Below, piece after piece: positions 4,559-61,486 of a stretch of 64,000 bases of DNA. The stretch is from an uncultured Gammaproteobacteria bacterium (lineage in GTDB: Bacteria > Patescibacteriota > Microgenomatia > Daviesbacterales > UBA10151): NCBI GenBank assembly GCA_964649615.1, contig CAZYPW010000006.1, positions 12,635 through 76,634 on the forward strand, read 5' to 3'. The notes below the pieces were generated by a model. That model was not told the origin of the DNA. It saw only the letters and a program-made list of their open reading frames with translations, and ran no database searches. The position numbers and the translations under genes are program-made. Positions within the stretch are counted from its first letter, which is position 1. Each line of letters opens with the position of its first letter.

Positions 4559-4580
4559 TTTGTCGTACAATATTTTTTAG

Positions 4581-8888: not shown

Positions 8889-9270
8889 ATATGCCCTATA
8901 GTTTGACATAAAATATCCTCCAGGAGTATAATTCCTAATATGTCAGAAAGAATTAATCCTTCAGAAGATCCTAGTCTATTAGATCTATGAAAGATAGTGT
9001 TATGGAGATTTGGGGCTTTATTCATCAGCCAGATTTTAGCGATTGGTTAGTTAATCATAAAGGCCAGGTGGCAAGAAAATTATTACTTCTAGGAGGATTA
9101 GGAATAGTCACCCTATTTGGTTTTAAGACACTAAAAGATACTTATAATCACTAGCAGAAAACCCCGCTTTCTTAAAACGGGGATGAATGCTAAAGTGATT
9201 ACAGTCTTCCGCGGGATAGGTGGTATATAATCCAACTAGTCCCACCTCCGAGGTAGGAGTGATCGGACAC

Positions 9271-9768: not shown

Positions 9769-9925
9769 AGAGCTAGATTATATCGAACACCGTATTTTTC
9801 TGGGTTAGTCTTTAAATTATCCATAGAAGTTTCCCAGCCTGCAAATTGGGGATTATTATTGATTACTTGGGCAAATCTTTTTTGTAGTTTTCAGATCAAA
9901 TTGCATTGACAACTAAAATTACCTA

Positions 9926-15434: not shown

Positions 15435-15470
15435 TCCAATAATATACCCTAAATTCAGGAGAATTGCAAA

Positions 15471-16403: not shown

Positions 16404-17563
16404 ATAACTATTCTCTTTGTAGATTCTGCTAAATTAACTAGCAGTTCATAAGGAATGGTTTGGCAGATTTTAGCACAGTTTAAAATAGAATTTTTGCCCC
16501 TTGGATTATCGGAATAAACTATTACTTCTTGTCCAATATATGGTTTAGATACTTTGGTAATATCTATGGTGGTAATATTCATGCTGACTCTGCCTATGAT
16601 TGGACATTCAATACCATCAACAAAAACTATCCCTTTGTTAGATAACCTCAAATCAACTCCCTCATAGTAACCTAGTGGCAATATACCTACTGTCAGATTT
16701 CTTTTGGCAGTATAAAGACTCTCGTACCCTACCTTATCCCCTTTTTTTAGTTCTTTAATTTGAATAATCTTAGTTTTTAATTTTAAAACAGGTTTTAAAT
16801 CTACATTCCCACTTCGGATGTGGGAATTCGATATGCCATAGAGAGCAAGACCTACTCGGGCTATATTTACGTTGCAACCTCGAAGGTGGAATCGTAATAA
16901 TCCATCTGAGTTTTGGATATGAATATACTTTGGATTAAAACCAGCCTTCCTAACAATTTGTTGTACGTGCTTCAAATTGTTAATTTGCTTAAGATTCAAT
17001 CCATTCTTGGGATCATCTGCACAAGCAAAATGTGATATCAAACCTTCCACTTTTAAGTATTTTAGCCCTTTTAGTTCTTCTAAAAATAGTGGTAAATCTT
17101 TCATTTGAATGCCTTCTCTGCTCATACCAGTATCTACAAAAATATGAACACTACATTCTGGTTGATATTTACTTAAAACTTTAGCTGTTTTCAAATCATA
17201 TAAAGCAAAAGAAAAAGGCAGTTTTTTAACTTTAAAATTTTCAGGATTTGTATATCCCATTATTAAAATTTTAGTTTTAATCCTTGCTTTTAGTAATTCA
17301 TATGCTTCATATAAAGAATCAACACAAAAAAATGGTGCATTAACTTGGTCTAAAATTTTTGCTATCTCAACTATTCCATGCCCATATCCATTACTTTTTA
17401 TGACAGGGGCAACTTTAATTTTTTTAGTGCGCGAAGCGCGCGAGCTTTGCTCATTTAAAGAAGATAAATATTTGTAGTTATGAATTAAATTTGCTTTCGA
17501 CACCTCAATTAGATTTAAGGTTTGGTAATCTTTTTTAAATATTTTTAGAATTTTGCTTAACAT
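16400..17563 (-). CDS. alr: Alanine racemase
   Basis: PLP-lysine motif VIKSNGYGHG. Carries in-frame element insertions at 16806-16826, 16871-16890 and 17427-17447. Confidence 0.85.
   Translation of the reverse strand: MLSKILKIFKKDYQTLNLIEVSKANLIHNYKYLSSLNEQSSRASRTKKIKVAPVIKSNGYGHGIVEIAKILDQVNAPFFCVDSLYEAYELLKARIKTKILIMGYTNPENFKVKKLPFSFALYDLKTAKVLSKYQPECSVHIFVDTGMSREGIQMKDLPLFLEELKGLKYLKVEGLISHFACADDPKNGLNLKQINNLKHVQQIVRKAGFNPKYIHIQNSDGLLRFHLRGCNVNIARVGLALYGISNSHIRSGNVDLKPVLKLKTKIIQIKELKKGDKVGYESLYTAKRNLTVGILPLGYYEGVDLRLSNKGIVFVDGIECPIIGRVSMNITTIDITKVSKPYIGQEVIVYSDNPRGKNSILNCAKICQTIPYELLVNLAESTKRIVI
16806..16826. repeat. Family-1 palindrome
   Basis: In alr. Read as SHIRSGN. Confidence 0.9.
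16871..16890. repeat. Family-2 palindrome CAACCTCGAAGGTGG
   Basis: In alr. Read as FHLRGCN. Confidence 0.6.
17427..17447. repeat. Family-5-like GC hairpin GTGCGCGAAGCGCGCGAG
   Basis: In-frame in alr (SSRASRTKK). Confidence 0.6.
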
Positions 17564-17960
17564 TTTAGGAAAACTAATTATACATTATCCAATTTCTGAT
17601 TATTTCATTGGTTTTTATGGTACAGACATGTTTTATGTTTATGGAAGCTTTGGTTTAGTTGGGTTGATTGGTTTATGGCTGCGGTCACACAAAAGGCCTC
17701 TTTTTGTGATTAGCGGAGCTCTCTCCTCTTCCGTATTATTTTTTATCATCACTAATTTTGGAGTTTGGGCACCGCCAAATAATTGGTATCCCCATAATTT
17801 AAATGGCTTAATTAAAAGCTATACAATGGCATTGCCCTTTTTCAAAAATAGTCTAATTGGAGATGTTGGCTACACTATTATTTTATTTGGAGGATATGAA
17901 CTAACTAAAATATTTTCCAAGAAATACACCCCCCAAAAACTTTTTCAATTGCTCTACTGA
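17553..17960 (+). CDS. Membrane protein, hypothetical
   Basis: Four hydrophobic segments. Confidence 0.35.
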   Translation: MLNILGKLIIHYPISDYFIGFYGTDMFYVYGSFGLVGLIGLWLRSHKRPLFVISGALSSSVLFFIITNFGVWAPPNNWYPHNLNGLIKSYTMALPFFKNSLIGDVGYTIILFGGYELTKIFSKKYTPQKLFQLLY

Positions 17961-17997
17961 TTGGATTTCCCCATATTGCACAGGTATAATTTAGCAT

Positions 17998-20352
17998 ATG
18001 ACTTTTGAGGATTTAAGAAAAAAACATCCTGAGTTTATATATCATGGGTTTGAAAAAAAATTTGAAGATCAAACATTAAAAATCTATTTTGATTTTGAGA
18101 TATCTCCAAACATTAAATTCAGACCGGAAATTATTCTCCCAAACGTGTTCCCACATCGGATGTGGGAAGGCAAATTGGATAATTTGGTTTTTAATTTAGG
18201 AATGGTTGAGCTGATAAGTTACTGGAAAGCAACTTGTTCTCCAAAAATTACTATCAAAGCAGGTTTTTTAGATCAGGAACAAATTAAATTTTGGAAAAAA
18301 CTTTTAATAAAAGGCCTGGGAGAATTTTTTTATACAAACAGAATAGATTTTACCCAGGATGGGCTAGTTAATTTTGAAGTACGTTCCCACATGTCAAGTG
18401 GGAAGCCATTTGAGGGGATTTTGAAAGATAGAGATTTAATACTTGTTGGTGGAGGTAAGGATTCTGTTGTTACTTTGGATTCTATTTCCAAATCAGGTAA
18501 AGAATTTAACTGTCTGCTTTTAAATCCAACAGATGCAGCTATTAAAATTGCAGAAATCGGTGGGTGTAAAAATCCAATAATAGTGAAAAGAACAATAGAT
18601 CCTAAACTTTTGGAATTAAATGAGCAGGGTTATTTAAACGGCCATACTCCTTTTTCTGCATATCTTGCGTTTTTATCAATGCTATCTTCTGTAATTTATG
18701 ATTATAAAAATGTTGTTGTTTCTAATGAGTCCTCATCTAATGAAGGAAATGTGATTTGGATGGGTAAAGAAATAAATCATCAGTATTCTAAATCAGAGGA
18801 ATTTGAAAAAGACTTTAAAGAATATAGTCAAAAATATCTAGCTCCTGTTAATTACTATAGTTATTTAAGAGAATTAAATGAATTGGAAATTGCCAGAATT
18901 TTTTCCAACTTAGAAAAATACCACAAGGTTTTTAGAAGTTGTAACAAGGGTTCAAAACAAGGGAGTTGGTGTGGCAAGTGCTCAAAATGCCTATTCACTA
19001 ATTTAATTCTTTATCCGTTTTTAGGAAAAAAAATAGAAAGAATTTTTGGCAAAGATTTACTTGATGATGAAACTTTATCTCCAGTTATGGAAGAGCTTTT
19101 GCATTTGCCGGGTAAATTTAAGCCGTTTGAATGTGTTGGCACAAAAGAGGAAATTGAATATGCAATGTTGCTGGGCATTTTAAGAAGCAAGAGAAAATTA
19201 TTAGAAAGATATAAAGATCAGATATCAATCCTAATTTTGGGAATGGGCAGAGAAGGAATAGCAACAAGTAATTTTTTGCAAAAAAATAACATAAATTTCT
19301 CAACCTCTGATCAAAAAGAGGGGAAAAATTATCTTGATAAGTTAAAAGATTATGACGTGATTATTAAATCTCCCGGCATCCCCTATTTGATAGAAATTAA
19401 AAAAGCCAAAGAAAATGGAAAAATCATTTCATCTAGCACGCAAATTTTTTTTGATCTTTGCCTTGGGAAAATAATCGGCGTCACCGGTACCAAGGGCAAA
19501 AGCACCACCACATCCATGATTTATGAAGTCTTAAAATCAGGAGGCTTAGATGTTTACCTGGTGGGGAATATTGGTCAGCCAGCGCTGGATTTATTAGATA
19601 ATCTTAAGAAAGATTCTATAGTAGTTTATGAATTATCTTCATTCCAGCTAGCTGATCTTAAGAAAAGTCCTCAGATTGCAGTGATAACCAATATTTATCC
19701 GGATCATTTGGACTGGCATGGCAGTTTTGAAGATTATAAAAAAGCCAAAGAAAATATCAGTAGGTTTCAGACAAAAAATGATATTCTTATCTCCAATAAA
19801 AGAGGTGCTGAAGCTGCAAAAATTATTGGAAAATTATTTAAAATAAGTGAAGAAAAAATAAACAAAGCAATTAAGAATTTTAAGCCACTCCCACATCGGT
19901 TAGAATTTGTTGCAGAAAAAAATGGAATTAAATTTTATAATGATTCCCTGGCAACTAATCCCCATGCCACCATTTTTGGGTTAAAGACTTTAGGAGAAAA
20001 AGTAGAGACTTTAATAGCCGGAGGGCTTGACCGCGGGGTTGATTATTCCATTTTAGGACCGGTAATTGCCAATTCAAAAATAAAAAATCTAATTTTATTT
20101 CCTGATACAGGTAAAAAAATAGGAGAGGTCGTCAGTTATCAGCCCGCTTCGCTGCGAGGCGAGTCATCAGCTATCAGACAATTTCATGTTAATAATATGG
20201 AAGAGGCTGTTAAAATTGCTTATGAAAATACTTCCCCTGGAAAAATTTGCCTGATGTCCCCTGCCTCAGCCAGTTTTAATATGTTCAAAGACTATGAAGA
20301 TAGAGGAAATCAGTTTAGGAGTTGGGTTGCCAGATTAGGAAGAAGACACTAG
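17998..20352 (+). CDS. murD: Fusion protein: N-terminal PP-loop-like ATP-pyrophosphatase-type domain plus C-terminal MurD-type Mur ligase
   Basis: The C-terminal 400 aa have GVTGTKGKSTTTSMI (P-loop), NIGQPALDLL, DHLDWHGSFEDY. The N-terminal 400 aa have LVGGGKDSVVTLD (SGGxDS-like) and WCGKCSKC. Two in-frame palindromic elements at 18148-18168 and 18384-18404. Confidence 0.7.
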   Translation: MTFEDLRKKHPEFIYHGFEKKFEDQTLKIYFDFEISPNIKFRPEIILPNVFPHRMWEGKLDNLVFNLGMVELISYWKATCSPKITIKAGFLDQEQIKFWKKLLIKGLGEFFYTNRIDFTQDGLVNFEVRSHMSSGKPFEGILKDRDLILVGGGKDSVVTLDSISKSGKEFNCLLLNPTDAAIKIAEIGGCKNPIIVKRTIDPKLLELNEQGYLNGHTPFSAYLAFLSMLSSVIYDYKNVVVSNESSSNEGNVIWMGKEINHQYSKSEEFEKDFKEYSQKYLAPVNYYSYLRELNELEIARIFSNLEKYHKVFRSCNKGSKQGSWCGKCSKCLFTNLILYPFLGKKIERIFGKDLLDDETLSPVMEELLHLPGKFKPFECVGTKEEIEYAMLLGILRSKRKLLERYKDQISILILGMGREGIATSNFLQKNNINFSTSDQKEGKNYLDKLKDYDVIIKSPGIPYLIEIKKAKENGKIISSSTQIFFDLCLGKIIGVTGTKGKSTTTSMIYEVLKSGGLDVYLVGNIGQPALDLLDNLKKDSIVVYELSSFQLADLKKSPQIAVITNIYPDHLDWHGSFEDYKKAKENISRFQTKNDILISNKRGAEAAKIIGKLFKISEEKINKAIKNFKPLPHRLEFVAEKNGIKFYNDSLATNPHATIFGLKTLGEKVETLIAGGLDRGVDYSILGPVIANSKIKNLILFPDTGKKIGEVVSYQPASLRGESSAIRQFHVNNMEEAVKIAYENTSPGKICLMSPASASFNMFKDYEDRGNQFRSWVARLGRRH
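18148..18168. repeat. Family-1 palindrome TTCCCACATCGGATGTGGGAA
   Basis: In the PP-loop::MurD fusion. Read as FPHRMWE. Confidence 0.9.
18384..18404. repeat. Family-1 palindrome, variant B TTCCCACATGTCAAGTGGGAA
   Basis: Same gene. Read as SHMSSGK. Confidence 0.9.
20143..20166. repeat. Family-5-like CCCGCTTCGCTGCGAGGCGAG
   Basis: In-frame in the MurD part (PASLRGES). Shares CCGCTTCGC and GAGGCGAG with the 7553 copy. Confidence 0.6.
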
Positions 20353-47294: not shown

Positions 47295-48866
47295 ATGAGC
47301 AAACAACTAACAAAATTATCTCAAGCTTTAATTGCAGCTTATGATAAAGATTATAAGCACAGCTTGGATAACACCATTTCTGTAAATCCTGTGGTGGCAG
47401 AACTGGCTGCCTGGTATGAAAAATTCAGGACTGCCATGGATTATCGGGATGATGAAGTTATCTTGCGCTCAGCCATTGAACGAATTTTAAAAAGAAGATT
47501 GATGATGTCAAATACTGGTGTAGCTATTGCTGCACCCTTAATTCGTGAACTTGTTTGGGCCAGATACTTTCCTGATGCATCAGTTTCTGAGTCTTCTGTT
47601 AACAAAGTAGCCCAAGCTATAGATTTATATGTCAAGCTTGAAGAAGAAATAAATAAAAAACACCGGATTAATAAGATGATAGTTTCTGAATGGATTATTC
47701 ACTTGCTTTCATCAGAGATAGAGGATATTTTAAAGCCTTCTCCAGAAAAAAATATGATGTGCAATTTTATTTTTAATATTTTTAAAAGCAGAGTTACTAT
47801 TTTGGATGATACAGATGAAATAAGGGATATTCAAGTTTTTATTGCAGTGAGGCGGGCCTTTGCTTATGATGACTTAGCTCTTTTAAGATTTCATTTATTC
47901 AGGCAATACTTTGGCCATTTAAATGCCCATAATTTAGACAAAATATCTACTGATTTTATGGATGGGTATAAAAAGATTGAAGAACAATTTAATTATCCAT
48001 CCAAAGATAAAATTCATAGCTATATTAAGGATCAGATGATCCCCTTTTTAATCTTGGATGATGTTTTAAGAAAATACAAAGGAAAGCTTCACTCTTTAAT
48101 TTCAGATGAAGAGCAGTTAAATTTAGCAATTTTAGAAGCATGCTCCTCAAGATATAAAACTATTGTGGGTAAAGTGAGAAGGGCTATTGTTAGAAGTGTC
48201 ATTTTTATCTTTTTTACCAAAGCAATTTTTGCCCTTTTTGTAGAAGGAGCTTTTGAGAGACTTTTATATGGAAGAATCGTTTGGCCCTCTATTGCCTTAA
48301 ATACTTTAACTCCACCAGCCTTAATGGTTTTAGTTGGGGTTTTTGTTAAAACTCCCGCAAAAGATAATTCTTTTAAAATTTCCCACAAAATAAGTACTAT
48401 TCTTTTTGATGAAAATCCTAATTTAGAAGTTCCTTTGCAAGTTAAAAAAAGGCCTTCCAAGATAGACCCCATAATTTGGATTTTGTTTATGAGTTTGTGG
48501 TTTACTACTTTTGTGTTAAGTTTTGGAGCTATTATTTTTCTTCTGACCAAGTTGGAGGTAAATCCTCTGTCTCAAGCTGTGTTTATATTTTTCTTAGCTA
48601 TAGTTTCTTTTGTAGGTTTTAGGGTAAACAGAACTGCCCATATGTATATTTTAAAAGATAAAAGAGAATATTTAGGATCCATACTTTTTGACTTTTTCTT
48701 TATGCCTTTTATCCAAGTAGGGAGAAGGTTAACGGCCTATGTTTCCCAAATAAATATCATTTTATTTGTCTTTGATTTTATTATTGAAGCTCCCTTTAAA
48801 GGAATAGTAGCCTTTTTAGAACAGTGGCTGCTCTTTTTAAGGACTCAAAGGGAAAAATTAGATTAA
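47295..48866 (+). CDS. Membrane protein, hypothetical (C-terminal multi-TM)
   Basis: 523 aa, with a soluble N-terminal half and 5-6 TM helices in the C-terminal half. Confidence 0.45.
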   Translation: MSKQLTKLSQALIAAYDKDYKHSLDNTISVNPVVAELAAWYEKFRTAMDYRDDEVILRSAIERILKRRLMMSNTGVAIAAPLIRELVWARYFPDASVSESSVNKVAQAIDLYVKLEEEINKKHRINKMIVSEWIIHLLSSEIEDILKPSPEKNMMCNFIFNIFKSRVTILDDTDEIRDIQVFIAVRRAFAYDDLALLRFHLFRQYFGHLNAHNLDKISTDFMDGYKKIEEQFNYPSKDKIHSYIKDQMIPFLILDDVLRKYKGKLHSLISDEEQLNLAILEACSSRYKTIVGKVRRAIVRSVIFIFFTKAIFALFVEGAFERLLYGRIVWPSIALNTLTPPALMVLVGVFVKTPAKDNSFKISHKISTILFDENPNLEVPLQVKKRPSKIDPIIWILFMSLWFTTFVLSFGAIIFLLTKLEVNPLSQAVFIFFLAIVSFVGFRVNRTAHMYILKDKREYLGSILFDFFFMPFIQVGRRLTAYVSQINIILFVFDFIIEAPFKGIVAFLEQWLLFLRTQREKLD

Positions 48867-48872
48867 TCCGTA

Positions 48873-48893
48873 TTCCCACTTGACATGTGGGAA
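48873..48893. repeat. Family-1 palindrome variant B immediately 5' of the RAYT gene
   Basis: Lies between the stop at 48866 and the RAYT ATG at 48915. Confidence 0.9.
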
Positions 48894-49352
48894 CGTAGTT
48901 GGGACTATGGAATTATGGCAAATCCTCCTTTTGCTTCTGGCGAGTTTTATCATATTTATAACCGTGGTGTAGAAAAAAGAAAAATTTTTCTTGATAAGTG
49001 GGATTATTTAAGATTCTTAGAGACCCTAGATTTTTACCGCAAATCCCCCAACCCAATGAAACTATCGGATTTTAGAAGAGGTGTAATTAAACTTAAAAAG
49101 AATGAAGATCAGAAGGAAATAGTCAGAATTTATTGTTATTCTCTAATGCCGAATCACTTTCATCTGTTAGTTCAACAACTGGAAGAATCTGGAATTACTC
49201 AATTTATGAGAAAATTATCTGATAGTTATACCAGGTTTTTTAATACCAAGTATGAGAGGGTGGGTTCTCTTTTTCAGGGAAGCTTTAAGGCAAAATTAAT
49301 TGAAACTGATGAATATTTACTTCAGCTTTCAAAATATATTCATCGAAACGCG

Positions 49353-49373
49353 TTCCCACTTAAGATGTGGGAA
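49353..49373. repeat. Family-1 palindrome TTCCCACTTAAGATGTGGGAA inside the RAYT ORF
   Basis: Read as FPLKMWE. Confidence 0.85.
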
Positions 49374-49566
49374 GGTAAAGTTTATCCATATTCCTCCTAC
49401 GGGTATTATCTAAACGGGGAGAAACATCTATTCTGTGACACAGAATTTATAGGGGCATTTTTTTCTAAAACAAATCCTAAACTAAGCTATAAATCTTTTG
49501 TAGAGGAAACAGAGTTTGGGGATCCAATAGCAGTTTATAATCTCTCCATAGATAATGATGAATGCG

Positions 49567-49587
49567 TTCCCACATCGGATGTGGGAA
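49567..49587. repeat. Family-1 palindrome at the RAYT 3' end
   Basis: Encodes the C-terminal VPTSDVGS plus the stop. Confidence 0.9.
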
Positions 49588-49599
49588 GCTAAATAATAG

Positions 49600-50448
49600 T
49601 TAGGTTTTGTAGGGGTAAGGTCTGTTTCCAACAACTGGTGGATTTGCTATAAATCTGTAATAAACCATTGCTCTTATTTCTTGAGTTGGATATTCTGGAA
49701 ACCCATTATCTGGAGTTGGTAAAGAAAACATCCATGCCATAACTCCGGCTGGAAAAGCTCCTGATCCTTCTAAGGCATATAAAACTCTGACTGCTTGTGA
49801 GGCATGAGCTACAACACCTATCTCATCTCCTGATTGGATTTGAAGATTCAAAGGTAAGCTAAATGTTTGTATTTGATCCAAAAGATTATATTTTTCAGTG
49901 TTAAATCTGGGATGATCCACAGGATTAATAATAGAGACTCTATCAGGAGGGTATCCTAAGCCTTCAGGAATTCTAAACCAGGGAACCTTTGCTGCTTCTA
50001 TCAAATGAGCATTTTCATCTGATCTTCCATTATAAATTATTATTGGGCCATATTTTCTAATTAAATCTAATTCAGATGGAATATTTCCTGTAATTTCTCT
50101 TCCAGCTCTAATCTCAGCTAATCTTCTGGCCACTTTAAACCCATAATTTATCCTTCTCCTATCCGCCCAATGGGCCCACTCCTTATTTGCATATCTATCT
50201 TTTTTGTTTCTTTTAAAATATGTGCCTGGTGCAGATATTACCCAAATTGCTTTTATTCTGTCTGCATCTTCTTGGTTGAGGTTAAGTTGGGATCCTTGAG
50301 CAGCTTCTTCCAGTTGTTGATAAGTTCTGACAGCTTCATCTAAGAATGAACTTACTTCATGCAAGTCTTTTTCTTTCAGGGCTTCAGCCCACAATTCAAC
50401 TTGTTTAATGCTTTGTAAAACTGCTTGAGGGGTAATTACTTCTTTCAT
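49600..50448 (-). CDS. Hypothetical protein (possibly DUF218/YdcF-like)
   Basis: 282-aa ORF. Weak resemblance (VVAHASQAVRV) only. Confidence 0.35.
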   Translation of the reverse strand: MKEVITPQAVLQSIKQVELWAEALKEKDLHEVSSFLDEAVRTYQQLEEAAQGSQLNLNQEDADRIKAIWVISAPGTYFKRNKKDRYANKEWAHWADRRRINYGFKVARRLAEIRAGREITGNIPSELDLIRKYGPIIIYNGRSDENAHLIEAAKVPWFRIPEGLGYPPDRVSIINPVDHPRFNTEKYNLLDQIQTFSLPLNLQIQSGDEIGVVAHASQAVRVLYALEGSGAFPAGVMAWMFSLPTPDNGFPEYPTQEIRAMVYYRFIANPPVVGNRPYPYKT

Positions 50449-50548: not shown

Positions 50549-51286
50549 ATGGAACATGAAATTGTTTTAGCTCCGGAAGTATTGGGTTTTTATAATACCT
50601 TTCCTATTACTAATACCCTGCTTGTTTCCTGGATAGTAATGGTTGTTTTAATTGTAATAAGTTTACTCACCACCTGGAAGATCAGAGCAGTGCCTTACAT
50701 TTTGCAAAACTTTTTTGAAGCTATAATTGAAACAGGATATAAAACAGTAGAAGATTTAGCAGGATCACAAAAAGCTAAAGTCTTTTTCCCAATTTGTTTT
50801 ACCTTCTTTTTATATATTATTACTGCCAACTGGTTAGGATTATTCCCAGGTTTTGCCACTATTACTTATAAACACCAACCTCTTTTAAGGTCTATTAACT
50901 CAGATTTAAACATGACCTTGGCTTTAGCTTTAATCTCTGCCTTTTTAACCCATGCTTTTGCAGTAAGATACTTAGGTCCCGTAGGTTATTTAAAAAGATG
51001 GTTCTCACTGCAGCTTTTTCCTGTTTTCTTGTTTGTAGGATTTTTAGAAATTATCTCTGAGTTTACAAAAGTGGTCTCGCTTTCTTTTAGGCTTTTTGGT
51101 AATATTTTTGCCGGTGAGGTGGTTTTGACAACTGTGTCTGGAATATCTAAATTTAGCGCCTTTTTAGTACCGCTTCCTTTTTATTTGTTGGAAATTGTTG
51201 TAGGATTTGTACAGGCTGCTGTTTTTATGATGTTAACACTGGTATTTATGGTGTTACTAAGTGAGAAACATGAAGCTTCTCATTAG
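50549..51286 (+). CDS. atpB: F0F1 ATP synthase subunit a
   Basis: Five TM helices and the LSFRLFGNIFAGE motif with the essential Arg. Confidence 0.85.
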   Translation: MEHEIVLAPEVLGFYNTFPITNTLLVSWIVMVVLIVISLLTTWKIRAVPYILQNFFEAIIETGYKTVEDLAGSQKAKVFFPICFTFFLYIITANWLGLFPGFATITYKHQPLLRSINSDLNMTLALALISAFLTHAFAVRYLGPVGYLKRWFSLQLFPVFLFVGFLEIISEFTKVVSLSFRLFGNIFAGEVVLTTVSGISKFSAFLVPLPFYLLEIVVGFVQAAVFMMLTLVFMVLLSEKHEASH

Positions 51287-51317
51287 GTAACTAGTAACTA
51301 ATTACTAGTGCCTTTGA

Positions 51318-51539
<222 letters not shown>

Positions 51540-51618
51540 AGTCAAGTCGTTAGAGTCGAGAGTCAAGTGAAATTCTTATTGATTCTTCCTAGACTCTAGA
51601 ATCTAGACTCTAGTCACT

Positions 51619-52113
51619 ATGGATATACTTAATCAGTTTGGTATAAATCCAGTGCTTTTGGCAGCACAAACAATTAATTTTTTAATACTTCTGTTTTTAC
51701 TGAGGAAATTTTTATATGGCCCAATTTTAAGGGTTTTAGAAACCAGAAAGAAAAAAATTGAAGAGAGTTTAAAAAATGCAGAGGAGATTGAAAGAAAGCT
51801 ACTTTTAACTGAGGAGGAAAAAGAGAAGATTTTGGCTAAAACAGCAATTGAAGCAGGTAAACTCATAGATGATACCAAAAAAGAGATAGAGTTAATGAAG
51901 CAGGAAGGTAGAGTACAGGCAGAAGCATTGGCTGCACAAATAATCAAAAAAGGTGAAGCGAGTGCTAAAGCTGAAATGGAAAGGATGCAATCGGAGGTAA
52001 TGTCGCATTTATCAGAGATTATTGCTTTGGGTATGCAAAAAATTACTGGAAAGGCCTTAAATAAAAAAGAAGAGAGAGAATTGATTGAAAAGGAGGTTAG
52101 AAATTTGTCATGA
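51619..52113 (+). CDS. atpF: F0F1 ATP synthase subunit b
   Basis: N-terminal TM followed by a long charged helix. Confidence 0.8.
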   Translation: MDILNQFGINPVLLAAQTINFLILLFLLRKFLYGPILRVLETRKKKIEESLKNAEEIERKLLLTEEEKEKILAKTAIEAGKLIDDTKKEIELMKQEGRVQAEALAAQIIKKGEASAKAEMERMQSEVMSHLSEIIALGMQKITGKALNKKEERELIEKEVRNLS

Positions 52114-52505
52114 AAAAAAGCAATGACCTAAAAAAGTTAGTTGAAAAATGCTGCATATATTGTTGTTCTGATGGAAGGATTAACGAAAAAAAGGTTACCA
52201 GCGTTATTAAAAATCTTAAATCCCTTCCCAGATCTCAGGCTATTTTTGCTATATCAGAGTTCTTGAAGACTTTAAAAAAACAAATGAGTAAAACAACTTT
52301 AATTGTGGAATCCTCGTTGCCTTTATCAAAACTGCAACTTAACAGTATAGCTAAAAAGCTAAAAAGTGATTATATTATCAGCGATGTAAAAAATACTCTT
52401 AACCCTAAACTACTGGGAGGTTTTAGGGTGAAAATCGGTGATATGGTTTCTGATTTTTCTCTGCAGAATAGAATTTTACAGTTGAAGGAAGCTATAATAG
52501 CTTAA
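52110..52505 (+). CDS. atpH: F0F1 ATP synthase subunit delta (short OSCP-like)
   Basis: Position between atpF and atpA. 131 aa. Confidence 0.6.
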   Translation: MKKSNDLKKLVEKCCIYCCSDGRINEKKVTSVIKNLKSLPRSQAIFAISEFLKTLKKQMSKTTLIVESSLPLSKLQLNSIAKKLKSDYIISDVKNTLNPKLLGGFRVKIGDMVSDFSLQNRILQLKEAIIA

Positions 52506-52508
52506 AAT

Positions 52509-54104
52509 ATGAATATGGATATTATTTCCAAGATTGAGAGGGATATTAAGGAGCTAAAATTTAAAGCGCAAAAACAAAATGTAGGTTATGTGAGTGAGAT
52601 TGGTGATGGGGTGGCAAAAATAGACGGGCTTTCTGATGTGCAATATTCTGAGCTTTTGGATTTTGGCTCCGGGGTTAGAGGACTGGCTCTTAATTTGGAA
52701 CAATACTCTGTTGGAGCTGTTATTTTTGGAGATTATACCAAAATTAAAGAAGGGGCTGAAGTTAAAACAACAGGCAAAATTTTGGAGGTGCCGGTTGGTG
52801 AAGCACTTGTTGGAAGAGTGGTTAACGGCTTAGGAGAACCAATTGATGGAAAAGGAGCTATTAAAGCTTCTGCCAAATATCCGGTTGAGAAAATTGCCAC
52901 GGGTGTAATTAGCAGGCAGTCTGTTAATACCCCGCTCCAGACAGGCATTAAAGCCATAGACAGCATGATTCCAATTGGCCGTGGGCAGAGGCAGTTAATT
53001 ATTGGGGATAGAAATACGGGTAAAACAACTATTGCGATTGATACGATTGTAAACCAAGGGAGAGTTAATAGTTCACAGTTAGTTAGTTCATCGCCAAAAG
53101 CAAATCGAACTAACGAATTAACCAATCACGATAAACAAGTTATATGTATCTATGTGGCTATTGGCCAGAAAACTTCTAAAATTGCTCAATTGGTGGCTAA
53201 GTTAGAAGAACACGATGCCATGAAACACACTATCATTGTGGCTGCTTCTGCATCTGACAGCGCTACTATGCAATATATTGCCCCATATGCAGGAGTAGCT
53301 ATGGGTGAGTATTTTATGGACTTGGGCAAAGATGCTTTGATTATTTATGATGATTTGAGCAAACATGCCTGGGCTTACAGACAGGTGTCTTTGCTTCTGC
53401 GAAGGCCATCTGGCCGTGAGGCTTATCCCGGGGATGTGTTTTATTTGCATTCCAGGTTGCTTGAGCGGGCAGCCAGATTAAACAAAGATTACGGTGGCGG
53501 ATCGCTGACAGCTTTGCCTATTATAGAAACTCAGGCCGGAGATGTGTCTGCTTATATTCCAACTAATGTTATTTCTATCACAGACGGGCAGATTTATCTG
53601 GAATCTGATTTATTTAACTCCGGATTCAGGCCTGCTTTAAACGTTGGAATCTCTGTATCCAGAGTTGGAGGAGCAGCGCAAACAAAAGCTATGAAGTCGG
53701 TTGCAGGACAATTAAGGTTAGATTTAGCCCAGTTTAGAGCCTTACAGGCTTTTGCCCAATTTTCCTCTGATTTGGATCCGGAAACCAGATCCAGGATTGA
53801 AAGAGGCAGAAGAATTCAGGAGATACTAAAACAACCTCCTTACTCCCCTGTTAGCTTAGAAGAGCAGGTTGTTTCTTTATGGGCAGTTATAAACGGGCAT
53901 CTGGACGAGATTCCGGTTGAAAATATCCGTGATTTTGAACAAAAGTATCTAGAATACCTTAAATTAAGAGAGAAAAAGCTGCTTTCTGAGATAGCTTCTA
54001 AAAAAGAGTTGGACGAGAAGATGGTAAAAGAGCTAGAAAAGGTTACTAAGAGTTTTGTGAGTACTTTCGCAAAATCAAATATCAAAAATAAAAATGAAAA
54101 ATGA
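52509..54104 (+). CDS. atpA: F0F1 ATP synthase subunit alpha
   Basis: [16 protein letters not shown]-loop and a [42 protein letters not shown] block. Contains a roughly 26-aa in-frame insertion at 53061-53138. Confidence 0.95.
53078..53123. repeat. Family-4 inverted repeat GTTAGTTAGTTCATC...CGAACTAAC
   Basis: Inside atpA. The insert encodes [17 protein letters not shown]. Confidence 0.75.
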
Positions 54105-54141
54105 CAGATTAAAATGTAAAATGTTTACTTAAATTAAAACT

Positions 54142-56372
<2,231 letters not shown>

Positions 56373-56374
56373 AG

Positions 56375-57319
56375 CTATTTAGTAACTGTGCTTGTTACTG
56401 CCCTTGCAGAATCTTTTAGCATATTCCAATATTTTCTTGCCATATGGTCTGCAGATCTTTCAGCTTGGAAAGAGTAATAAACTTTTTCTGCTTCAATATT
56501 AGTTCTTACAAGATTCGTTGCATCCACAGGAGTTCTTATAGAATGCAACATTTCTCTAATTCTCCTGATTGGAGTAATCATACTGTCATAATCCACAACT
56601 TGTAGGATCTGTCTTACCGATGAATCTAATTCCCTTTCAGCATTAGGGCTATTTGGGTGAAATGAATTATAAGCAAGATATGGAAAGTTTCCAGAGATCC
56701 AAAGTCTGGAACTAGTATTAGGAGACATATAACTTAACCAAGCCTTCATCTTATCTGCTTTCCTTCGAATTAAGCGGTCTCCAAAACCCTTTCCTGCAGT
56801 TATGTGATCGGTAGGCACGCTTACTACAGTGTCATATACGGCGAATCCAAAGACGGTTCTAGCCTCCAAAATTCTCTGCGCAGGATGAACTCCAGATAGC
56901 AACATTTGTTGCTGGGATTGATTGGCTTGTGCTTCTATCCTAGCCTTATAATTTTGAGATAATTCTACCTGGTATCTGTCGGCTCTTTCTTGATACTGTT
57001 TCAGTTGGTCGCCCCATCTCCTCCAAACTTCGTAATTAGAGAACTCGTGGGTTAACTCGTCTCTATATAAGCTGGGATCAAAAGAGGGTAAATGTATTCC
57101 AATATGACTTTGGTTATCTACTGTATTTACTGCTGGCATAAAAAACATGCCAGTAAAATCATCTGGAAGGTCCTTTCCTTGAAGAAGCTCTGGTTTAGCC
57201 GTGGCAAATTTAAGCCTAGTGTATTCTTCCCTATCGGATGTTGCACTGACAGTTAAATCAGTTGTTTTATAAGTAGCCTTTAACTCATCTATGATTGTTT
57301 GAATATCTCTTTCAGGCAT
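56375..57319 (-). CDS. Hypothetical protein
   Basis: 314-aa ORF on the opposite strand immediately after the atpD stop. No recognisable motif. Confidence 0.45.
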   Translation of the reverse strand: MPERDIQTIIDELKATYKTTDLTVSATSDREEYTRLKFATAKPELLQGKDLPDDFTGMFFMPAVNTVDNQSHIGIHLPSFDPSLYRDELTHEFSNYEVWRRWGDQLKQYQERADRYQVELSQNYKARIEAQANQSQQQMLLSGVHPAQRILEARTVFGFAVYDTVVSVPTDHITAGKGFGDRLIRRKADKMKAWLSYMSPNTSSRLWISGNFPYLAYNSFHPNSPNAERELDSSVRQILQVVDYDSMITPIRRIREMLHSIRTPVDATNLVRTNIEAEKVYYSFQAERSADHMARKYWNMLKDSARAVTSTVTK

Positions 57320-57407
57320 AAATTTATTACAAAGTATACCATAATTCTTTCCTTAAACTACCTTCCCACGCTTCATATCTTCTTAAAGTTAAACAAGATC
57401 CTTCTTT

Positions 57408-57432
57408 GTGCCTCAACCTTCGAGGTTGCAAC
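57408..57432. repeat. Family-2 element TTCTTTGTGCCTCAACCTTCGAGGTTGCAACC
   Basis: Palindrome CAACCT-TCG-AGGTTG. Left flank of the atpD-fragment copy. Confidence 0.8.
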
Positions 57433-57486
57433 CTATTTTTCCGGCAGAAAAGGAAAATACGTGCCGATTAAAGAAACAATGAAAAT

Positions 57487-57514
57487 GTGCCTCAACCTTC
57501 GAGGTTGCAGGCTA
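57487..57514. repeat. Family-2 element TGCCTCAACCTTCGAGGTTGCAGGCTAAA
   Basis: Right flank of the atpD-fragment copy. Confidence 0.8.
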
Positions 57515-57520
57515 AACATT

Positions 57521-57880
57521 CTACGGAATATCTGACATTAAAGGCATTCCCAGATGAGTTTTAATTTCATCAATTTCTCTTTTGTTTCTGGAATGGAACA
57601 GTCCCTCTTTGTCTCTAATTCCTTTAACATCCATATGAAGATTTTCTATATCTCCTCTGGCTGCATCAACATTTTCACTCATTTCCTTTACATCTTTTTT
57701 AAGACCATCGACATCTTCCCTAAGAGCATTCACATCTCCCCTTGCTTCCTTAATCTCCTTTTTAACTGTATCAAGTCCTTCTTCAACATTCCCAAGTCTT
57801 TTATCTATCGGTTTTAATTCCTCTTTGACTATAGTGGTAACTTCTTCTTTAATTATTTGACGAAATTGTTTTGGATCCAT
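57521..57880 (-). CDS. Coiled-coil protein with repeated DV..L..DV motifs
   Basis: 119 aa, with periodic EARGDVNALREDVDGLKKDVKEMSENVDAARGDIENLHMDVKGI repeats. Confidence 0.45.
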   Translation of the reverse strand: MDPKQFRQIIKEEVTTIVKEELKPIDKRLGNVEEGLDTVKKEIKEARGDVNALREDVDGLKKDVKEMSENVDAARGDIENLHMDVKGIRDKEGLFHSRNKREIDEIKTHLGMPLMSDIP

Positions 57881-57980
57881 GAATTAATTTTAATACTGAC
57901 CTATATGGAAAACAATATAGCTTTTGTACTCCAGTTAAGCAATATGTTCAAAGACGCTATCAAGATGAAATGAAACCACG

Positions 57981-58001
57981 TTCCCACATCGGATGTGGGA
58001 A
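57981..58001. repeat. Family-1 palindrome, intergenic copy
   Basis: Lies within the atpD/atpC island. Confidence 0.9.
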
Positions 58002-58463
58002 TATGGATGAAGTAAGTTATTCTTCAATATAAACAAATTGGCCTTTTTCATCAAATTTTATGGATTTAAACAGATTAAAGAACCCGTCTCTTCCTAAAAT
58101 TGGAATATTTTGTTTAACACTGAAGTCTGCATCTGTTTCATAACTTTTATTTCCCAACCAAATCTGATCCAGAATCCAGTAAAGCATCAAATTTGGGGAA
58201 ATCGGAGGAACATATGAATATCAAGTTATTTTAGACATTACATTGATAAATGACCATCAAAAGGTGGAACATAATGAAGAATAACCTCATCCTTCTTTTT
58301 TCCAGTTAATCTTTTGAGTAAAGAATCCAATGATTGTGTTGAATTAACTACCCTTGTTCTTTTTTTGTCAAGAGCAACCCATTTATTCTCATAGTTTAAA
58401 AGGAAGCATGACTCCAATCTTTCTACATGATTGGGACCATTGATGAGGTAAAGGAATAACTAT

Positions 58464-58943
58464 TTACCCTCTTTTAGGCGGGTTAAAAGATGGATTGTCT
58501 GGCAAAACACCCGCTTCCAAGTATCGAACATTGATAGATAAGCCATTAGCTATTAAAATTTTTTGTAAGTCATGTATTCCTCTTTTAATCTTGCCATTTT
58601 CTAAAGCTGATAAGTAAGCTTTAGTTATAGGGGGACCAGACCTTTTTGCTAACTCTGTAAGTGAAAGAGCTCTCTCATTTCTCCATGCTCTTACAACTAG
58701 GCCTGGAGAGTAATGTGAGCCATGGATTTGTAAACTTCTATTCATAAAGTCTTCGTCTTGAGGAAAAAGTCTAGCATTCTCAATAAATCTTCCTAATAGG
58801 ATGATTTCTTCTTCTAAATTGCTATGATATCGCTCTGGATAACGTTGGATAATATATGATACTCCCTCTAGAAAATACCTGGTTTGACCTGGAGATAACT
58901 GATCTAGTTCCCTTGTTATAGCATGTTCTAATTCGTTAAACAT
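58464..58943 (-). CDS. XRE-family HTH domain protein
   Basis: C-terminal LSLTELAKRSGPPITKAYLSALENGK helix-turn-helix. Confidence 0.55.
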   Translation of the reverse strand: MFNELEHAITRELDQLSPGQTRYFLEGVSYIIQRYPERYHSNLEEEIILLGRFIENARLFPQDEDFMNRSLQIHGSHYSPGLVVRAWRNERALSLTELAKRSGPPITKAYLSALENGKIKRGIHDLQKILIANGLSINVRYLEAGVLPDNPSFNPPKRG

Positions 58944-59012
58944 AGGAATAATTTTAACAGAAAATTAGGAATAAATCAAACTATGGGACTTTTGGAGTTT
59001 GTGCTTTTTGAA

Positions 59013-59318
59013 TTAAAATTTCAACCCCGCCTTGGTTTTAATTCTATTTCCTTTTTGTCCCACTACACCATATGATGTATTAGACATCTCCATAAACCCC
59101 ACATCAATTTTATAATTTTTGCTACCAATTTTAATACGCAGTGTATGGATATAAATATTTTCAGGGAAACCTACAATTCCACTAACTTGTAATTTTATGC
59201 CTTTTAATAAATTAATCCCTAAAACTTCAGTTACTTGTGCATTAAAGATACAGATATCTGCACCTGAGTCAATTAGTACTTCATATGGGGATAACGGGAC
59301 GTAAAGTATCAGTACCAA
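59013..59318 (-). CDS. Retropepsin-like aspartic protease (clan AA)
   Basis: VLIDSGADICIF contains the D-S-G-A catalytic signature of retroviral-type aspartyl proteases. 101 aa. Confidence 0.6.
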   Translation of the reverse strand: MVLILYVPLSPYEVLIDSGADICIFNAQVTEVLGINLLKGIKLQVSGIVGFPENIYIHTLRIKIGSKNYKIDVGFMEMSNTSYGVVGQKGNRIKTKAGLKF

Positions 59319-59340
59319 ATTCCTTATATTTAAACTTCAT

Positions 59341-59392
59341 TTCTTTGTGCTTCAACCTTCGAGGTTGCAGGCTAGAGGTTGCAGGCTAAAAT
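59341..59392. repeat. Family-2 element with duplicated GAGGTTGCAGGCTA arm
   Basis: TTCTTTGTGCTTCAACCTTCGAGGTTGCAGGCTAGAGGTTGCAGGCTAAA, between the retropepsin gene and the Cys-rich gene. Confidence 0.8.
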
Positions 59393-59446
59393 TTCATCAC
59401 TATATTCTCGGTCTCGAATATAATTTTTACTAACAAATGGTGCAGA

Positions 59447-59692
59447 TTAAGCTGCCGGTAAAACTGGTTCTCCTCCTCCTGTACTAACTGTTACTGGTGG
59501 ACAGCTACATTTGCTTTCAGCCTCATTACAGGGGACGCATTTTTTAACACAATGCTCTCCTCCACAAGCATGTTGTTCATCATGCATATCTGACTCTGCC
59601 CCGCACATATCACATTTATACCCTGTGGTACCTTGGCCACACCTGGTACACATAGCAGCTGTAGGATTATTATTTCGATCCATTTTTATCAC
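59447..59692 (-). CDS. Cys/His-rich metallothionein-like small protein
   Basis: 81 aa with 14 Cys in CxxC/CxC arrangements plus His (CTRCGQ, KCDMCGAES, HACGGEHCVKKCVPC, CSCPP). GC content above local background. Confidence 0.5.
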   Translation of the reverse strand: MIKMDRNNNPTAAMCTRCGQGTTGYKCDMCGAESDMHDEQHACGGEHCVKKCVPCNEAESKCSCPPVTVSTGGGEPVLPAA

Positions 59693-59744
59693 CTCCTTGT
59701 TTCTATGGTAACTAATAGGGTCTGTATGGTCAATATCTCAATTA

Positions 59745-60107
59745 CTAGACAAGATGGGTAAAGGCACCATCTAGGTGAAGATAATAAGCTTCAACTTCTA
59801 AATTTGGATACTTTCCCAAAACCTTAGCTCTGGCATTTTTTAAATCCTCTGCATGTTTTTGGGGAGAAGACTCTTTCCCATAAGCCCCACAATCTTCGTG
59901 GTTTATCAGGATTACTTTTTTAATGTGATGCAGCTTTACCGCAATATCAATTTGCCCCAAGATGACCTCTAAATTTTTCACTCCACCTGCCAAAGCCACC
60001 CGATCAAAAATTTTAGGCCTGATATGTTGAGAGATCCATTTATTTATGGTCTTTTGAAACCGAAAGTCGATACAAGTAACAATTATGCCTTCTGTTTGGT
60101 GATTCAT
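59745..60107 (-). CDS. Beta-carbonic-anhydrase-like protein (CxDxR ... HxxC zinc-site spacing), truncated fold
   Basis: VTCIDFR and INHEDCGAY lie 58 residues apart, matching the beta-CA Cys/Asp/Arg and His/Cys ligand spacing. Only 120 aa. Confidence 0.35.
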   Translation of the reverse strand: MNHQTEGIIVTCIDFRFQKTINKWISQHIRPKIFDRVALAGGVKNLEVILGQIDIAVKLHHIKKVILINHEDCGAYGKESSPQKHAEDLKNARAKVLGKYPNLEVEAYYLHLDGAFTHLV

Positions 60108-60132
60108 AATATGATATTATACAATATGTTTT

Positions 60133-60543
60133 ATGGCTCAGTTGCATTTAAAAGTTGTTACTCCGGAAAAACTTTTGCTGGATGAAGAGGTTTCTCAAGT
60201 TAATGTGTCCACTGAACAAGGCCAAATAGGGATTTTGCCAAATCATGCAAACTTAATGGCCAAGTTAGAGCCAGGTGAGCTGGTTATAAAAAAGGGTGGG
60301 AAAGTGGATACTTTGGCTGTGGGAGATGGATTTTTGCAGGTTGCAAATAATACCCTGACAGTGATGACTGATCTGGCTACATATGCTGTGGATATAGATG
60401 AAAAGACTGTTGAGGAGGCTAAAAAAAGAGCTGAGCAGGCTTTAGAACAAACTTTATCGGATGAAGAATATGCAGAAACATTTGCCAATTTACAAAAATC
60501 CCTGGCCCAGCTTCATGTTAAAAGAAGACACAGAGTAAGGTAA
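60133..60543 (+). CDS. atpC: F0F1 ATP synthase subunit epsilon, displaced from atpD
   Basis: QGQIGILPNHANLMAKLEPGELVIKKGG...GDGFLQVANNTLTVMTDLA...DIDEKTVEEAKKRAEQAL is the typical epsilon beta-sandwich plus C-terminal helix. Confidence 0.8.
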   Translation: MAQLHLKVVTPEKLLLDEEVSQVNVSTEQGQIGILPNHANLMAKLEPGELVIKKGGKVDTLAVGDGFLQVANNTLTVMTDLATYAVDIDEKTVEEAKKRAEQALEQTLSDEEYAETFANLQKSLAQLHVKRRHRVR

Positions 60544-60559
60544 TTGATACAATTACTAC

Positions 60560-61486
60560 ATGGTAAAAGCACCTGATCTTTCGATAATAATTCTTAACTA
60601 TAATGTTAAGGAACTATTACTCAATTGTTTAGAGTCTATTTTTAAAAACAAGGGTAAGGAGGATAAGTGGCAGGTAGTTGTGGTGGATAATGCTTCAATA
60701 GACGGCTCAGTAGAAGCAGTTAAACAACTACGTTCCCACATGTCAAGTGGGAACACAGTTGATATTATAGAAAACAGGGAAAATATGGGATTTGCCAATG
60801 GTAATAATGTGGCTATTCCTAAAGTTAAAGCGCCTGTAGTTTTATTTTTAAATCCAGATACCAAAATTGTGGGAGATGTGATTCAAAAATGTTTAGATAA
60901 ATTGCTTTCTAATCCAGATCTCGGGGCAATTAGCCCAAGAGTAGAATTGCCCGATGGCAGATTGGATTACTCCTGTCACAGAGGTTTCCCTACTCCCTGG
61001 AATTCTTTGATGTATTTTTCAGGAATTTCAAAGTTATTTCCTAAAATTAAATTATTCTCAGGGTACACTGCTTCATATTTAGATACTCAGACAGAACATG
61101 AAATAGATTGTATTACTGGAGCTTTTTTGATGGTTAGAAAAATTGCTGGGGATCAAATTCACTGGTGGGATAAGGATTATTTTTTTAATGGTGAAGATAT
61201 TGAATTTTGTTTTTCTTTAAAAGAAAAGGGTTGGGAAATTTATTATTACCCAAAAGTAAAAATAATCCACTACAAGGGTTCTTCTTCAGGATTGTGGTCT
61301 ACTGCTAAAATTCAAGTTTCTAAAGAATCCAGGTTGAAATCCGCAAAACATTCCACAGGAGCCATGAGAATTTTTTATATGAAGCATTATTATAAAAAAT
61401 ATCCGGTTTTTTTCAGGGACTTGGTTTTGCTGGGAATAAAGTCGCTGGAGCATTACAGAAAGGCAAAAATATGGATCTCTCGGTAA
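60560..61486 (+). CDS. Glycosyltransferase family 2
   Basis: LSIIILNYNVKELL, VVDNASIDGS, and a DxD-like region. In-frame palindromic element at 60733-60753. Confidence 0.8.
   Translation: MVKAPDLSIIILNYNVKELLLNCLESIFKNKGKEDKWQVVVVDNASIDGSVEAVKQLRSHMSSGNTVDIIENRENMGFANGNNVAIPKVKAPVVLFLNPDTKIVGDVIQKCLDKLLSNPDLGAISPRVELPDGRLDYSCHRGFPTPWNSLMYFSGISKLFPKIKLFSGYTASYLDTQTEHEIDCITGAFLMVRKIAGDQIHWWDKDYFFNGEDIEFCFSLKEKGWEIYYYPKVKIIHYKGSSSGLWSTAKIQVSKESRLKSAKHSTGAMRIFYMKHYYKKYPVFFRDLVLLGIKSLEHYRKAKIWISR
60733..60753. repeat. Family-1 palindrome variant B
   Basis: In the GT2 gene. Read as SHMSSGN. Confidence 0.9.

Follow-up and report, generated by a model that had tools for sequence, protein, structure and literature searches.

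Why is the ATP synthase operon of this bacterium, a Candidatus Daviesbacteria member of the Candidate Phyla Radiation (CPR), interrupted between atpD and atpC by several kilobases of genes on the opposite strand? The DNA analyzed (the window, a stretch of 64,000 nt) encodes a complete F1Fo set, with Pfam matches for all eight subunits (a, c, b, delta, alpha, gamma, beta and epsilon). Pfam agrees with a first-pass annotation of the window that atpBEFHAGD runs unbroken to 56372 and that atpC starts at 60133, and all six open reading frames (ORFs) that this annotation had placed between atpD and atpC were found at those positions, every one on the minus strand. The operon genes, and the gene and spacer that adjoin atpC, are as follows.

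50549-56372, plus strand: atpB-E-F-H-A-G-D, contiguous (Pfam ATP-synt_A, _C, _B, OSCP, _ab, ATP-synt)
50549-51286, plus strand: atpB (Pfam)
55005-56372, plus strand: atpD (Pfam)
59745-60107, minus strand: mini beta-carbonic-anhydrase-like (CA-like) gene, 120 aa (Pro_CA_2 PF20393, 8.5e-17; PF00484, 4e-5)
60108-60132, both strands: divergent spacer of 25 bp with overlapping -10-like boxes, recognized from the sequence
60133-60543, plus strand: atpC, epsilon subunit (ATP-synt_DE_N, 4.4e-26; ATP-synt_DE, 1.1e-9)

The answer that we reach is that the atpD-atpC interval probably serves the whole clade as a hot spot of gene exchange, anchored at the atpD 3' end and sitting atop an older, inherited split of the operon.

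We compared the window with 80 AtpD relatives from species-representative genomes and with 30 loci of the same clade found by an AtpC search of metagenomes (AtpC identity 67-90%); related loci are cited by L-numbers (L001, L087 and so on). Wherever atpC was detected among the 80 relatives, it lies 7-231 bp from atpD, the three closest relatives excepted; in these the gap is 6.8, 1.25 and 1.9 kb (L001, L002 and L003, with AtpD identities of 90%, 86% and 84%; L003 is labelled Candidatus Daviesbacteria). The next-closest relative, from Woykebacteria (78% AtpD identity), has atpD and atpC contiguous. The split had been called unusual, and it is: just three of 80 relatives exceed a gap of ~230 bp, and the synteny comparison proposed at the outset finds atpD-atpC contiguous in those relatives outside the clade where atpC was detected, and split within the clade.

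In about 22 of the 30 clade loci, the CA-like gene is the immediate upstream neighbour of atpC, on the minus strand and divergent from it. In L081, it is the sole gene between atpD and atpC (atpD stop at 2592, CA-like gene at 2599-2964, a 25-nt spacer, atpC from 2990). Hence, with this gene conserved beside atpC and alone there in L081, the split is inherited and ancestral to the clade, and the CA-like gene already stood between atpD and atpC, head-to-head with atpC, in the common ancestor of this Daviesbacteria-like clade. Its 120-aa product is predicted to be beta-carbonic-anhydrase-like: it carries the beta-class zinc-site motifs Cys-x-Asp-x-Arg and His-x-x-Cys, residues C12, D14, R16, H70 and C73 are invariant in 7 orthologues, and its best PDB sequence matches are beta-carbonic anhydrases (E 0.09), which at full length have ~200 aa.

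The spacer between the CA-like gene and atpC holds two overlapping boxes, a plus-strand TACAAT for atpC and a minus-strand TATAAT for the CA-like gene. Of 26 clade loci, 24 have a TAnAAT box that begins 6-17 nt before the start of atpC, whatever the upstream neighbour, and in most loci it begins ~12 nt before the true atpC ATG. These features suggest that 60108-60132 is a putative bidirectional promoter for leaderless or near-leaderless transcripts. Once the CA-like gene, on the opposite strand, had come to separate atpD from atpC in the ancestor of the clade, atpC would have been transcribed from its own promoter, as the conserved sequence indicates, with a -10 box ~7 nt from the ATG that overlaps the CA-like box. 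Since this box is ~7 nt from the ATG, the atpC mRNA would be leaderless or nearly so. The essential operon would tolerate a permanent interruption because its distal gene gained a promoter of its own, probably a leaderless one.

Gene content turns over fast in the segment that runs from the atpD stop to the CA-like gene, and nearly every genome has a different set there. This segment ranges from 0 to at least 6 kb and has almost no common genes; the whole atpD-atpC interval measures 0.4-6.8 kb (n = 17). Apart from the atpD tail, the cargo of 17 intervals fell into 46 protein clusters, and 32 of these occur at a single locus. The cargo includes XRE and HTH_17 regulators, Fic and MOSC proteins, a glyoxalase, methyltransferases, glycosyltransferases, transporters and a RelE-like toxin pair (the last identified by eye only). 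Contents differ among close relatives, with L081 as the empty state, and at all loci many unrelated accessory families are bounded by atpD at one end and by the CA-like gene/atpC at the other. Insertion of mobile DNA into the operon, as first proposed, is borne out to the extent that the interval is mostly accessory, differs among close relatives and holds relics of atpD as insertion footprints. Conserved genes of uniform composition, which would have argued for vertical inheritance, make up part of the interval and not the rest.

The relics of atpD, with the genes and palindromes beside them, are listed below; o314 denotes the 314-aa orphan and cc119 the 119-aa coiled-coil protein.

56289-56372, plus strand: current atpD tail, codons 429-455 and stop, 'GGLEDLK' type
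56375-57319, minus strand: o314, 314 aa, stop 2 nt from the atpD stop
57402-57435, plus strand: family-2 palindrome P1, at the left edge of relic A
57436-57488, plus strand: atpD relic A, codons 412-428 (blastn E 1.8e-13)
57481-57514, plus strand: family-2 palindrome P2, a hairpin just downstream of cc119
57521-57880, minus strand: cc119, coiled coil, 119 aa (generic coiled-coil matches only)
58017-58190, minus strand: decayed retropepsin-like gene (tblastn 70% to L087 4528-4698; blastn 82%)
58206-58417, minus strand: decayed DUF5678 gene (tblastn 53% to L087 4956-5132; blastn 72%; Pfam DUF5678, 1.8e-5)
58402-58459, plus strand: atpD relic B, codons ~435-439 and 443-455 with one extra codon, and stop
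58464-58943, minus strand: XRE-family helix-turn-helix (HTH) protein, 159 aa (HTH_3, 1.7e-8), stop 4 nt from the fossil atpD stop

A copy of the atpD 3' end had been noticed at the start; it is present at 57436-57488, and it is not single, as a second relic lies at 58402-58459. Over 48 nt, relic A matches 56242-56289 at 89.6% identity, and it ends 0-4 nt from the codon 428/429 boundary. Relic B encodes '...KHDS..QSFYMIGTIDEVKE' followed by the stop codon, which is the very end of AtpD in colinear order, and is a fossil of a former atpD tail. This fossil tail is of the 'GTIDEVK' type vs the 'GGLEDLK' type of the live gene. Support for relic A, and for a repeat in L087, comes from blastn E-values; the short relics (relic B and those of L082 and L088) were each compared with 500 shuffles, and none of the 500 reached the score in any of the three. 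The fossils of L082 ('MVGTIDEVK' with its stop) and L088 ('IGPEDLK') lie 0.7-0.9 kb 3' of the live stop.

In L087, the duplication is complete. An 84-bp direct repeat (3650-3733 and 5154-5237, 88% identical, E 6e-25) comprises exactly codons 429-455 and the stop, and its copies flank 1.4 kb with HTH_17 (excisionase-type), XRE, retropepsin-like and DUF5678 genes; the current tail of the window corresponds to this 84-bp unit. Relic B and the decayed DUF5678/retropepsin genes are orthologous to the L087 arrangement, with ~60 nt of the left edge gone. The stretch of decayed ORFs at 57900-58460 in the first-pass annotation is thus accounted for as the remnants of a retropepsin-like and DUF5678 pair that is intact in L087. 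As the left edge of relic B is gone, a repeat that starts exactly at codon 429 is seen in L087 only. Codons 429-430 of relic B had seemed to be the 'TTTAAA' at 58394-58399, a reading that we rejected, as the L087 alignment puts this hexamer in the DUF5678 coding sequence. The end of relic A and the start of the L087 repeat, two events only, may mark codon 428/429 as a preferred exchange point.

The geometry of the neighbouring genes points to the same end of atpD. In the window, L002, L081, L082, L087, L088, L092 and L094, the stop of a minus-strand ORF is within 0-10 nt of that of atpD; where fossil stops are concerned, the distance is 1-4 nt (the window, with 58459 vs 58464, L087 and L082). 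Hence, with minus-strand genes abutting the atpD stop, there is essentially no intergenic target, and new DNA would have to enter inside the end of atpD. The tail types 'GG.EDLK' and 'GTIEEVK' are interspersed on a neighbor-joining tree of AtpD codons 1-405, a pattern that supports tail replacement, and the current atpD tail would be a replacement brought with inserted DNA.

We propose the following sequence of events. New DNA would enter within the last roughly 30-45 codons of atpD, as the relics and the geometry indicate, and would carry a homologous replacement tail together with the abutting gene or genes, so that the essential atpD would stay intact. The old tail, with its former neighbour still abutting, would be pushed downstream and would decay. 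The window would have received at least two insertions and would hold at least three layers: the oldest would be relic B with the XRE gene; the intermediate, relic A together with cc119 and the remnants of the retropepsin/DUF5678 pair, the lost part of its tail now being P2, which fills the site expected for codons 429-455; and the newest, the present tail with o314. Palindromes of the repetitive extragenic palindromic (REP) type and of family 2 would have been added, or would lie at junctions. Three routes would each give this product: site-specific recombination by an enzyme supplied in trans, a Campbell-type single crossover with a circular fragment that carries the tail, and homology-facilitated illegitimate recombination after DNA uptake, for which atpD would be the anchor.

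Several observations weigh against this account of a hot spot at the atpD 3' end. Only 4 of ~13 distinct genomes yielded relics, three of which are short (cores of 20-38 nt). Relic A stops at codon 428 and not at the atpD stop; because it holds codons 412-428 only, an extra deletion or a replacement by P2 must be assumed. The tree on which the tail types are interspersed carries no support values, and sliding-window identity along atpD vs 13 relatives was too noisy to give a clear breakpoint. A scan of interval ORFs in the window and in L001, L002, L003, L082, L087, L088, L092, L094, L096, L098 and L105 gave no Phage_integrase, Resolvase, transposase or phage gene, nor does an integrase stand at an end of the island; the one tyrosine recombinase of the window, found by tblastn with an Xer-type query that matched 4560-5492 only, is Xer-like and lies 50 kb away (4581-5504). 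Composition is host-like, and the GC and codon profile proposed as a check shows no foreign signature: GC is 0.362 in the island vs 0.371 in the window, GC at third codon positions (GC3) of the genes gives z from -1.8 to +1.6, and the tetranucleotide distance is mildly high (rank 3 of 65). Such a composition fits exchange among related genomes or long residence. Lastly, the promoter function of the atpC -10 box is deduced from sequence alone.

The alternative that survives best, which we hold to be possible and clearly the less probable, sharpens the hot spot into a mobile system. The last 27 codons of atpD (the 84-bp tail) would be a portable attachment site for small integrative elements, integrase-less units of a tail plus one to four convergent genes, each of which brings its own tail, in the manner of elements that target tRNA genes; their recombinase would be elsewhere or lost. 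These units would move as circles that recombine at codon 428/429, or via a recombinase in trans, and would stack nested fossil tails. The exact limits of the L087 repeat, from codon 429 to the stop, argue for this, as do the end of relic A 0-4 nt from the same boundary, the excisionase-type HTH_17 and XRE genes of the L087 element and the nested relics, which suggest that one site was used repeatedly. However, the scanned intervals hold no integrase, no obvious dyad symmetry is seen by eye at the boundary, only two independent boundaries coincide, and the left edge of relic A at codon 411/412 is another breakpoint. Viral contigs, searched with degenerate patterns of the atpD tail, gave only an ordinary atpGDC operon and no isolated tail. 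Phage origin was likewise considered and set aside: the L087 retropepsin-like protein has no viral relative, and cc119 gave one weak coiled-coil match. Were the atpD tail a true attachment site of integrase-less mobile units, the interest of the locus would rise; this would be a cassette-capture system on an essential gene of energy metabolism in organisms whose mobile elements are almost unknown.

Purely vertical descent, in which an ancestral multi-gene interval underwent differential loss and decay with no import of DNA, is unlikely. The host-like composition, the conservation of the CA-like gene and cc119, and the visible decay at 58017-58417 are all as it would have them. Against it, 32 of the 46 gene clusters occur in single loci only, o314 and the Cys-rich protein described below are nearly absent from 5.8 billion proteins and have other contexts elsewhere, and duplicated atpD tails of different type need an insertion event. 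Cargo at loci other than atp is partly seen (the Cys-rich gene and a 33%-identical homologue of o314).

That a single mobile island of ~3.7 kb recently entered between atpD and atpC, as the first-pass annotation had it, is very unlikely. All six genes do run opposite to the operon, the interval does contain palindromes and a copy of atpD sequence, and o314 and the Cys-rich gene are extremely rare. But the CA-like gene is conserved here across the clade, in ~22 loci, and cc119 recurs; the internal fossil atpD ends and decayed genes imply several layers; mobility genes (integrase, transposase or phage) are absent and composition is host-like. L081 and ~20 more loci, with the CA-like gene alone or with other cargo, contradict it directly.

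A slightly poorer prospect still is that the family-2 palindromes drive gene capture, either as attC-like sites or as a two-repeat CRISPR-like unit with the atpD fragment as 'spacer'. P1 and P2 are direct repeats 79 nt apart around the atpD fragment, the left flank of P1 plus the right flank of P2 equals P3 (a third copy, 59341-59388), and the family-2 hairpins are stable. However, these three copies occur in this genome alone among the loci, a fourth copy with 1 mismatch is inside an alanine racemase gene, and no Rfam CRISPR or other RNA family matches. By eye, the palindromes lack the R''/R' core consensus of attC (RYYYAAC/GTTRRRY), and they follow just 2 of 6 ORFs; as for a CRISPR array, there are two repeats 79 nt apart and one solitary copy. 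Neither intI nor a cas gene is among the ORFs scanned, the rest of the window not being annotated. Of the identities considered for the family-2 palindrome (attC site, CRISPR repeat, canonical terminator), we accepted none.

That atpD and atpC contigs were joined via repeats in a chimeric assembly or bin is the least credible reading, since, for all that the source is a metagenome-assembled genome and the interval contains repeats, four independent Logan assemblies match 55610-57586 at 100% identity from atpD through o314, P1, an identical relic A and P2 into cc119, the Cys-rich gene is on ~91-kb contigs from two sources, and relatives have the same CA-like/atpC junction and retropepsin/DUF5678/relic arrangement.

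Genomic islands and integrative elements that target the 3' terminus of conserved genes (those for tRNA and tmRNA, or protein genes such as guaA or rlmH/orfX) supply a replacement 3' end and leave direct repeats. The locus resembles them in that the atpD tail, from an internal point to the gene end, is duplicated as direct repeats (the 84-bp repeat of L087, relics A and B of the window, and the fossils of L082 and L088), that nested relics imply repeated use of the site, and that the cargo is small and accessory (XRE and HTH_17 regulators, toxin-like genes). Unlike those islands, it has no integrase or other recombinase in the scanned instances, its elements are only ~1-2 kb with no compositional signature, and the target is the ATP synthase beta-subunit gene within an operon. 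Integration hot spots flanked by core genes are the second known kind; many of these are without recognizable mobile elements, and their turnover is thought to proceed via recombination in the flanking genes. Constant flanks, very diverse cargo, the absence of mobility genes and host-like composition are shared with them. In contrast to them, the site lies within a normally single essential operon and keeps fossil copies of one flank, which are not expected from simple double-crossover replacement. The locus lacks the integrase and the deviant composition of 3'-end islands and has the constant flanks and unrelated accessory families of a core-gene hot spot.

Split atp clusters also have precedents, in the two atp operons of cyanobacteria and chloroplasts and in the scattered atp genes of some thermophiles. 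As there, F1Fo genes occupy more than one transcription unit and the distal subunit gene would have its own promoter; here, however, epsilon alone is separated, still 0.4-7 kb from atpD, and its gene is head-to-head with the CA-like gene. The kind of genome plasticity is known, and what is novel is the little-studied phylum and the unusual target. To our knowledge, horizontal gene flow in the CPR is poorly understood, with few mobile elements or integration sites described, and full-text literature searches turned up neither a described island that targets atpD nor a reported linkage of CA-like genes with ATP synthase in CPR. The locus, traceable across dozens of metagenomic relatives, offers a definite insertion site that was used repeatedly, its layers datable by the fossil atpD tails.

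We then consider the genes of the interval. The newest, o314, has no match in Pfam, NCBIfam or PHROG, and its homologues are very few: 3 among 5.8 billion proteins and, in an exhaustive HMMER search of 1.84 billion, 13 representatives. L118 holds a 62%-identical homologue, again beside the atpD 3' end. The AlphaFold2 model of o314 is confident and mostly helical (pLDDT 83), and a Foldseek comparison of the model with the PDB gave nothing below E 0.8. A role as a recombinase or recognizable enzyme was rejected, as profile, structure and HMMER searches gave no such match. It is strain-level cargo. By comparison, cc119 is a semi-conserved resident of the hot spot, with homologues within the atpD-atpC interval at six or seven loci (L002, L088, L090, L094, L099, L108); in L002, its stop is 8 nt from the atpD stop.

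The remaining features of the interval are these.

57976-58006, no strand assigned: family-1 REP-type palindrome GTTCCCACATCGGATGTGGGAA
59013-59318, minus strand: retropepsin-like protein, 101 aa (Asp_protease_2, 6e-5), TTG start, DSG motif kept
59341-59388, plus strand: family-2 palindrome P3, with a 14-nt tandem duplication (GAGGTTGCAGGCTA x2)
59447-59692, minus strand: Cys-rich small protein, 81 aa (68 aa from a later ATG), weak DZR match only

The intact retropepsin-like protein at 59013-59318 scores 24.1 bits for Asp_protease_2, just below the cut-off of 24.3, and is N-terminally shorter than its cluster mates, the 137-148-aa homologues of L087 and L095-97. The retropepsin/DUF5678 pair recurs in L087, L095-97 and, decayed, in the window. 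The DUF5678 gene lies directly upstream of the retropepsin-like (Asp_protease_2) gene as a two-gene module (L087 4507-5198, L096 7785-8521), which might be an addiction-type or otherwise selfish pair. The Cys-rich protein falls in four clusters among 5.8 billion proteins, in unrelated contexts elsewhere.

Sequence searches agree with the three family-2 palindromes and one family-1 palindrome originally reported in the interval. The family-2 palindrome CAACCTTCGAGGTTGCA is at 57414, 57493 and 59353, with the 1-mismatch copy at 16873 (4 matches vs 0.01 expected), and was not found in the other related loci fetched; among the loci examined, it is seen in the genome of the window only. Read on the minus strand, P2 folds into a hairpin with a T-rich run behind it (DNA fold -10.1 kcal/mol, z -4.45), and the region has no Rfam family match at E <= 1.

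Family 1 looks like part of a REP system with its REP-associated tyrosine transposase (RAYT) in a CPR genome. The relevant gene is the following.

48885-49592: RAYT-like Y1 transposase gene (PF01797, 1e-9; NF047646, 1e-9)

The palindrome has the form GTTCCCAC-N5-7-GTGGGAA(C), the copy in the interval being TTCCCACATCGGATGTGGGAA at 57981-58001. Full copies number 15 per 64 kb (9611, 16806, 18148, 18384, 21506, 24537, 25017, 45464, 48873, 49353, 49567, 54441, 57981, 60733 and 63419), and the 9-mer core occurs 17 times vs 0.7 expected. The RAYT gene is flanked by the copies at 48873 and 49567. As in REP/RAYT systems, a Y1 transposase gene is thus flanked by the palindrome, of which one of the 15 copies is in the island; unlike them, the family-2 palindrome has no associated enzyme. 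The family-1 palindrome is a bystander of the island, not its cause. Beside the RAYT gene, just upstream of atpB, are ORFs at 49600-50448 (minus strand, 282 aa) and 47295-48866 (plus strand, 523 aa), neither with a Pfam or NCBIfam match.

Family-1 copies also lie in frame inside genes, where they encode 'SHIGSGN' or 'SHMSSGN': in atpG (54441-54461), in a glycosyltransferase gene (60560-61486; copy at 60733-60754), in the alanine racemase gene (16806-16826) and at 63419. They resemble the Rickettsia palindromic elements found inside genes. The glycosyltransferase copy is an insertion of ~6 aa relative to most orthologues, in a length-variable loop, and L094 has it too. In the alanine racemase gene (16400-17563, minus strand), the family-1 and the 1-mismatch family-2 palindromes are 47 nt apart (16806-16889).

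Further genes of carbonic-anhydrase type adjoin atpC elsewhere. In L088, the gene for a CDCA (zeta-carbonic-anhydrase) repeat protein (9263-9976) separates the CA-like gene from atpC, and in L013 and L023, more distant CPR genomes, Pro_CA_2 homologues lie just 3' of atpC (~12030-12390). L001 has no Pro_CA_2; two large paralogues with a 'CIDGR' motif adjoin its atpC (14971-16494 and 16562-18196), and these 507- and 544-aa proteins were not accepted as carbonic anhydrases, having no significant similarity to the CA-like protein, Pfam or the PDB. The minimal CA-like gene is paired tightly with atpC across the clade, which hints at a functional link, and CA-like proteins and ATP synthase may be functionally linked in CPR.

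Start-proximal -10 boxes (5-10 nt from the start codon) occur in 13 of the 55 long ORFs of the window, and Shine-Dalgarno-like motifs in only 9, which suggests that leaderless transcription is widespread in the window. Within the operon, the ATP synthase delta subunit (OSCP, 52110-52505) has 131 aa and matches model positions 68-171 of 172 only, which suggests that it is N-terminally shortened.

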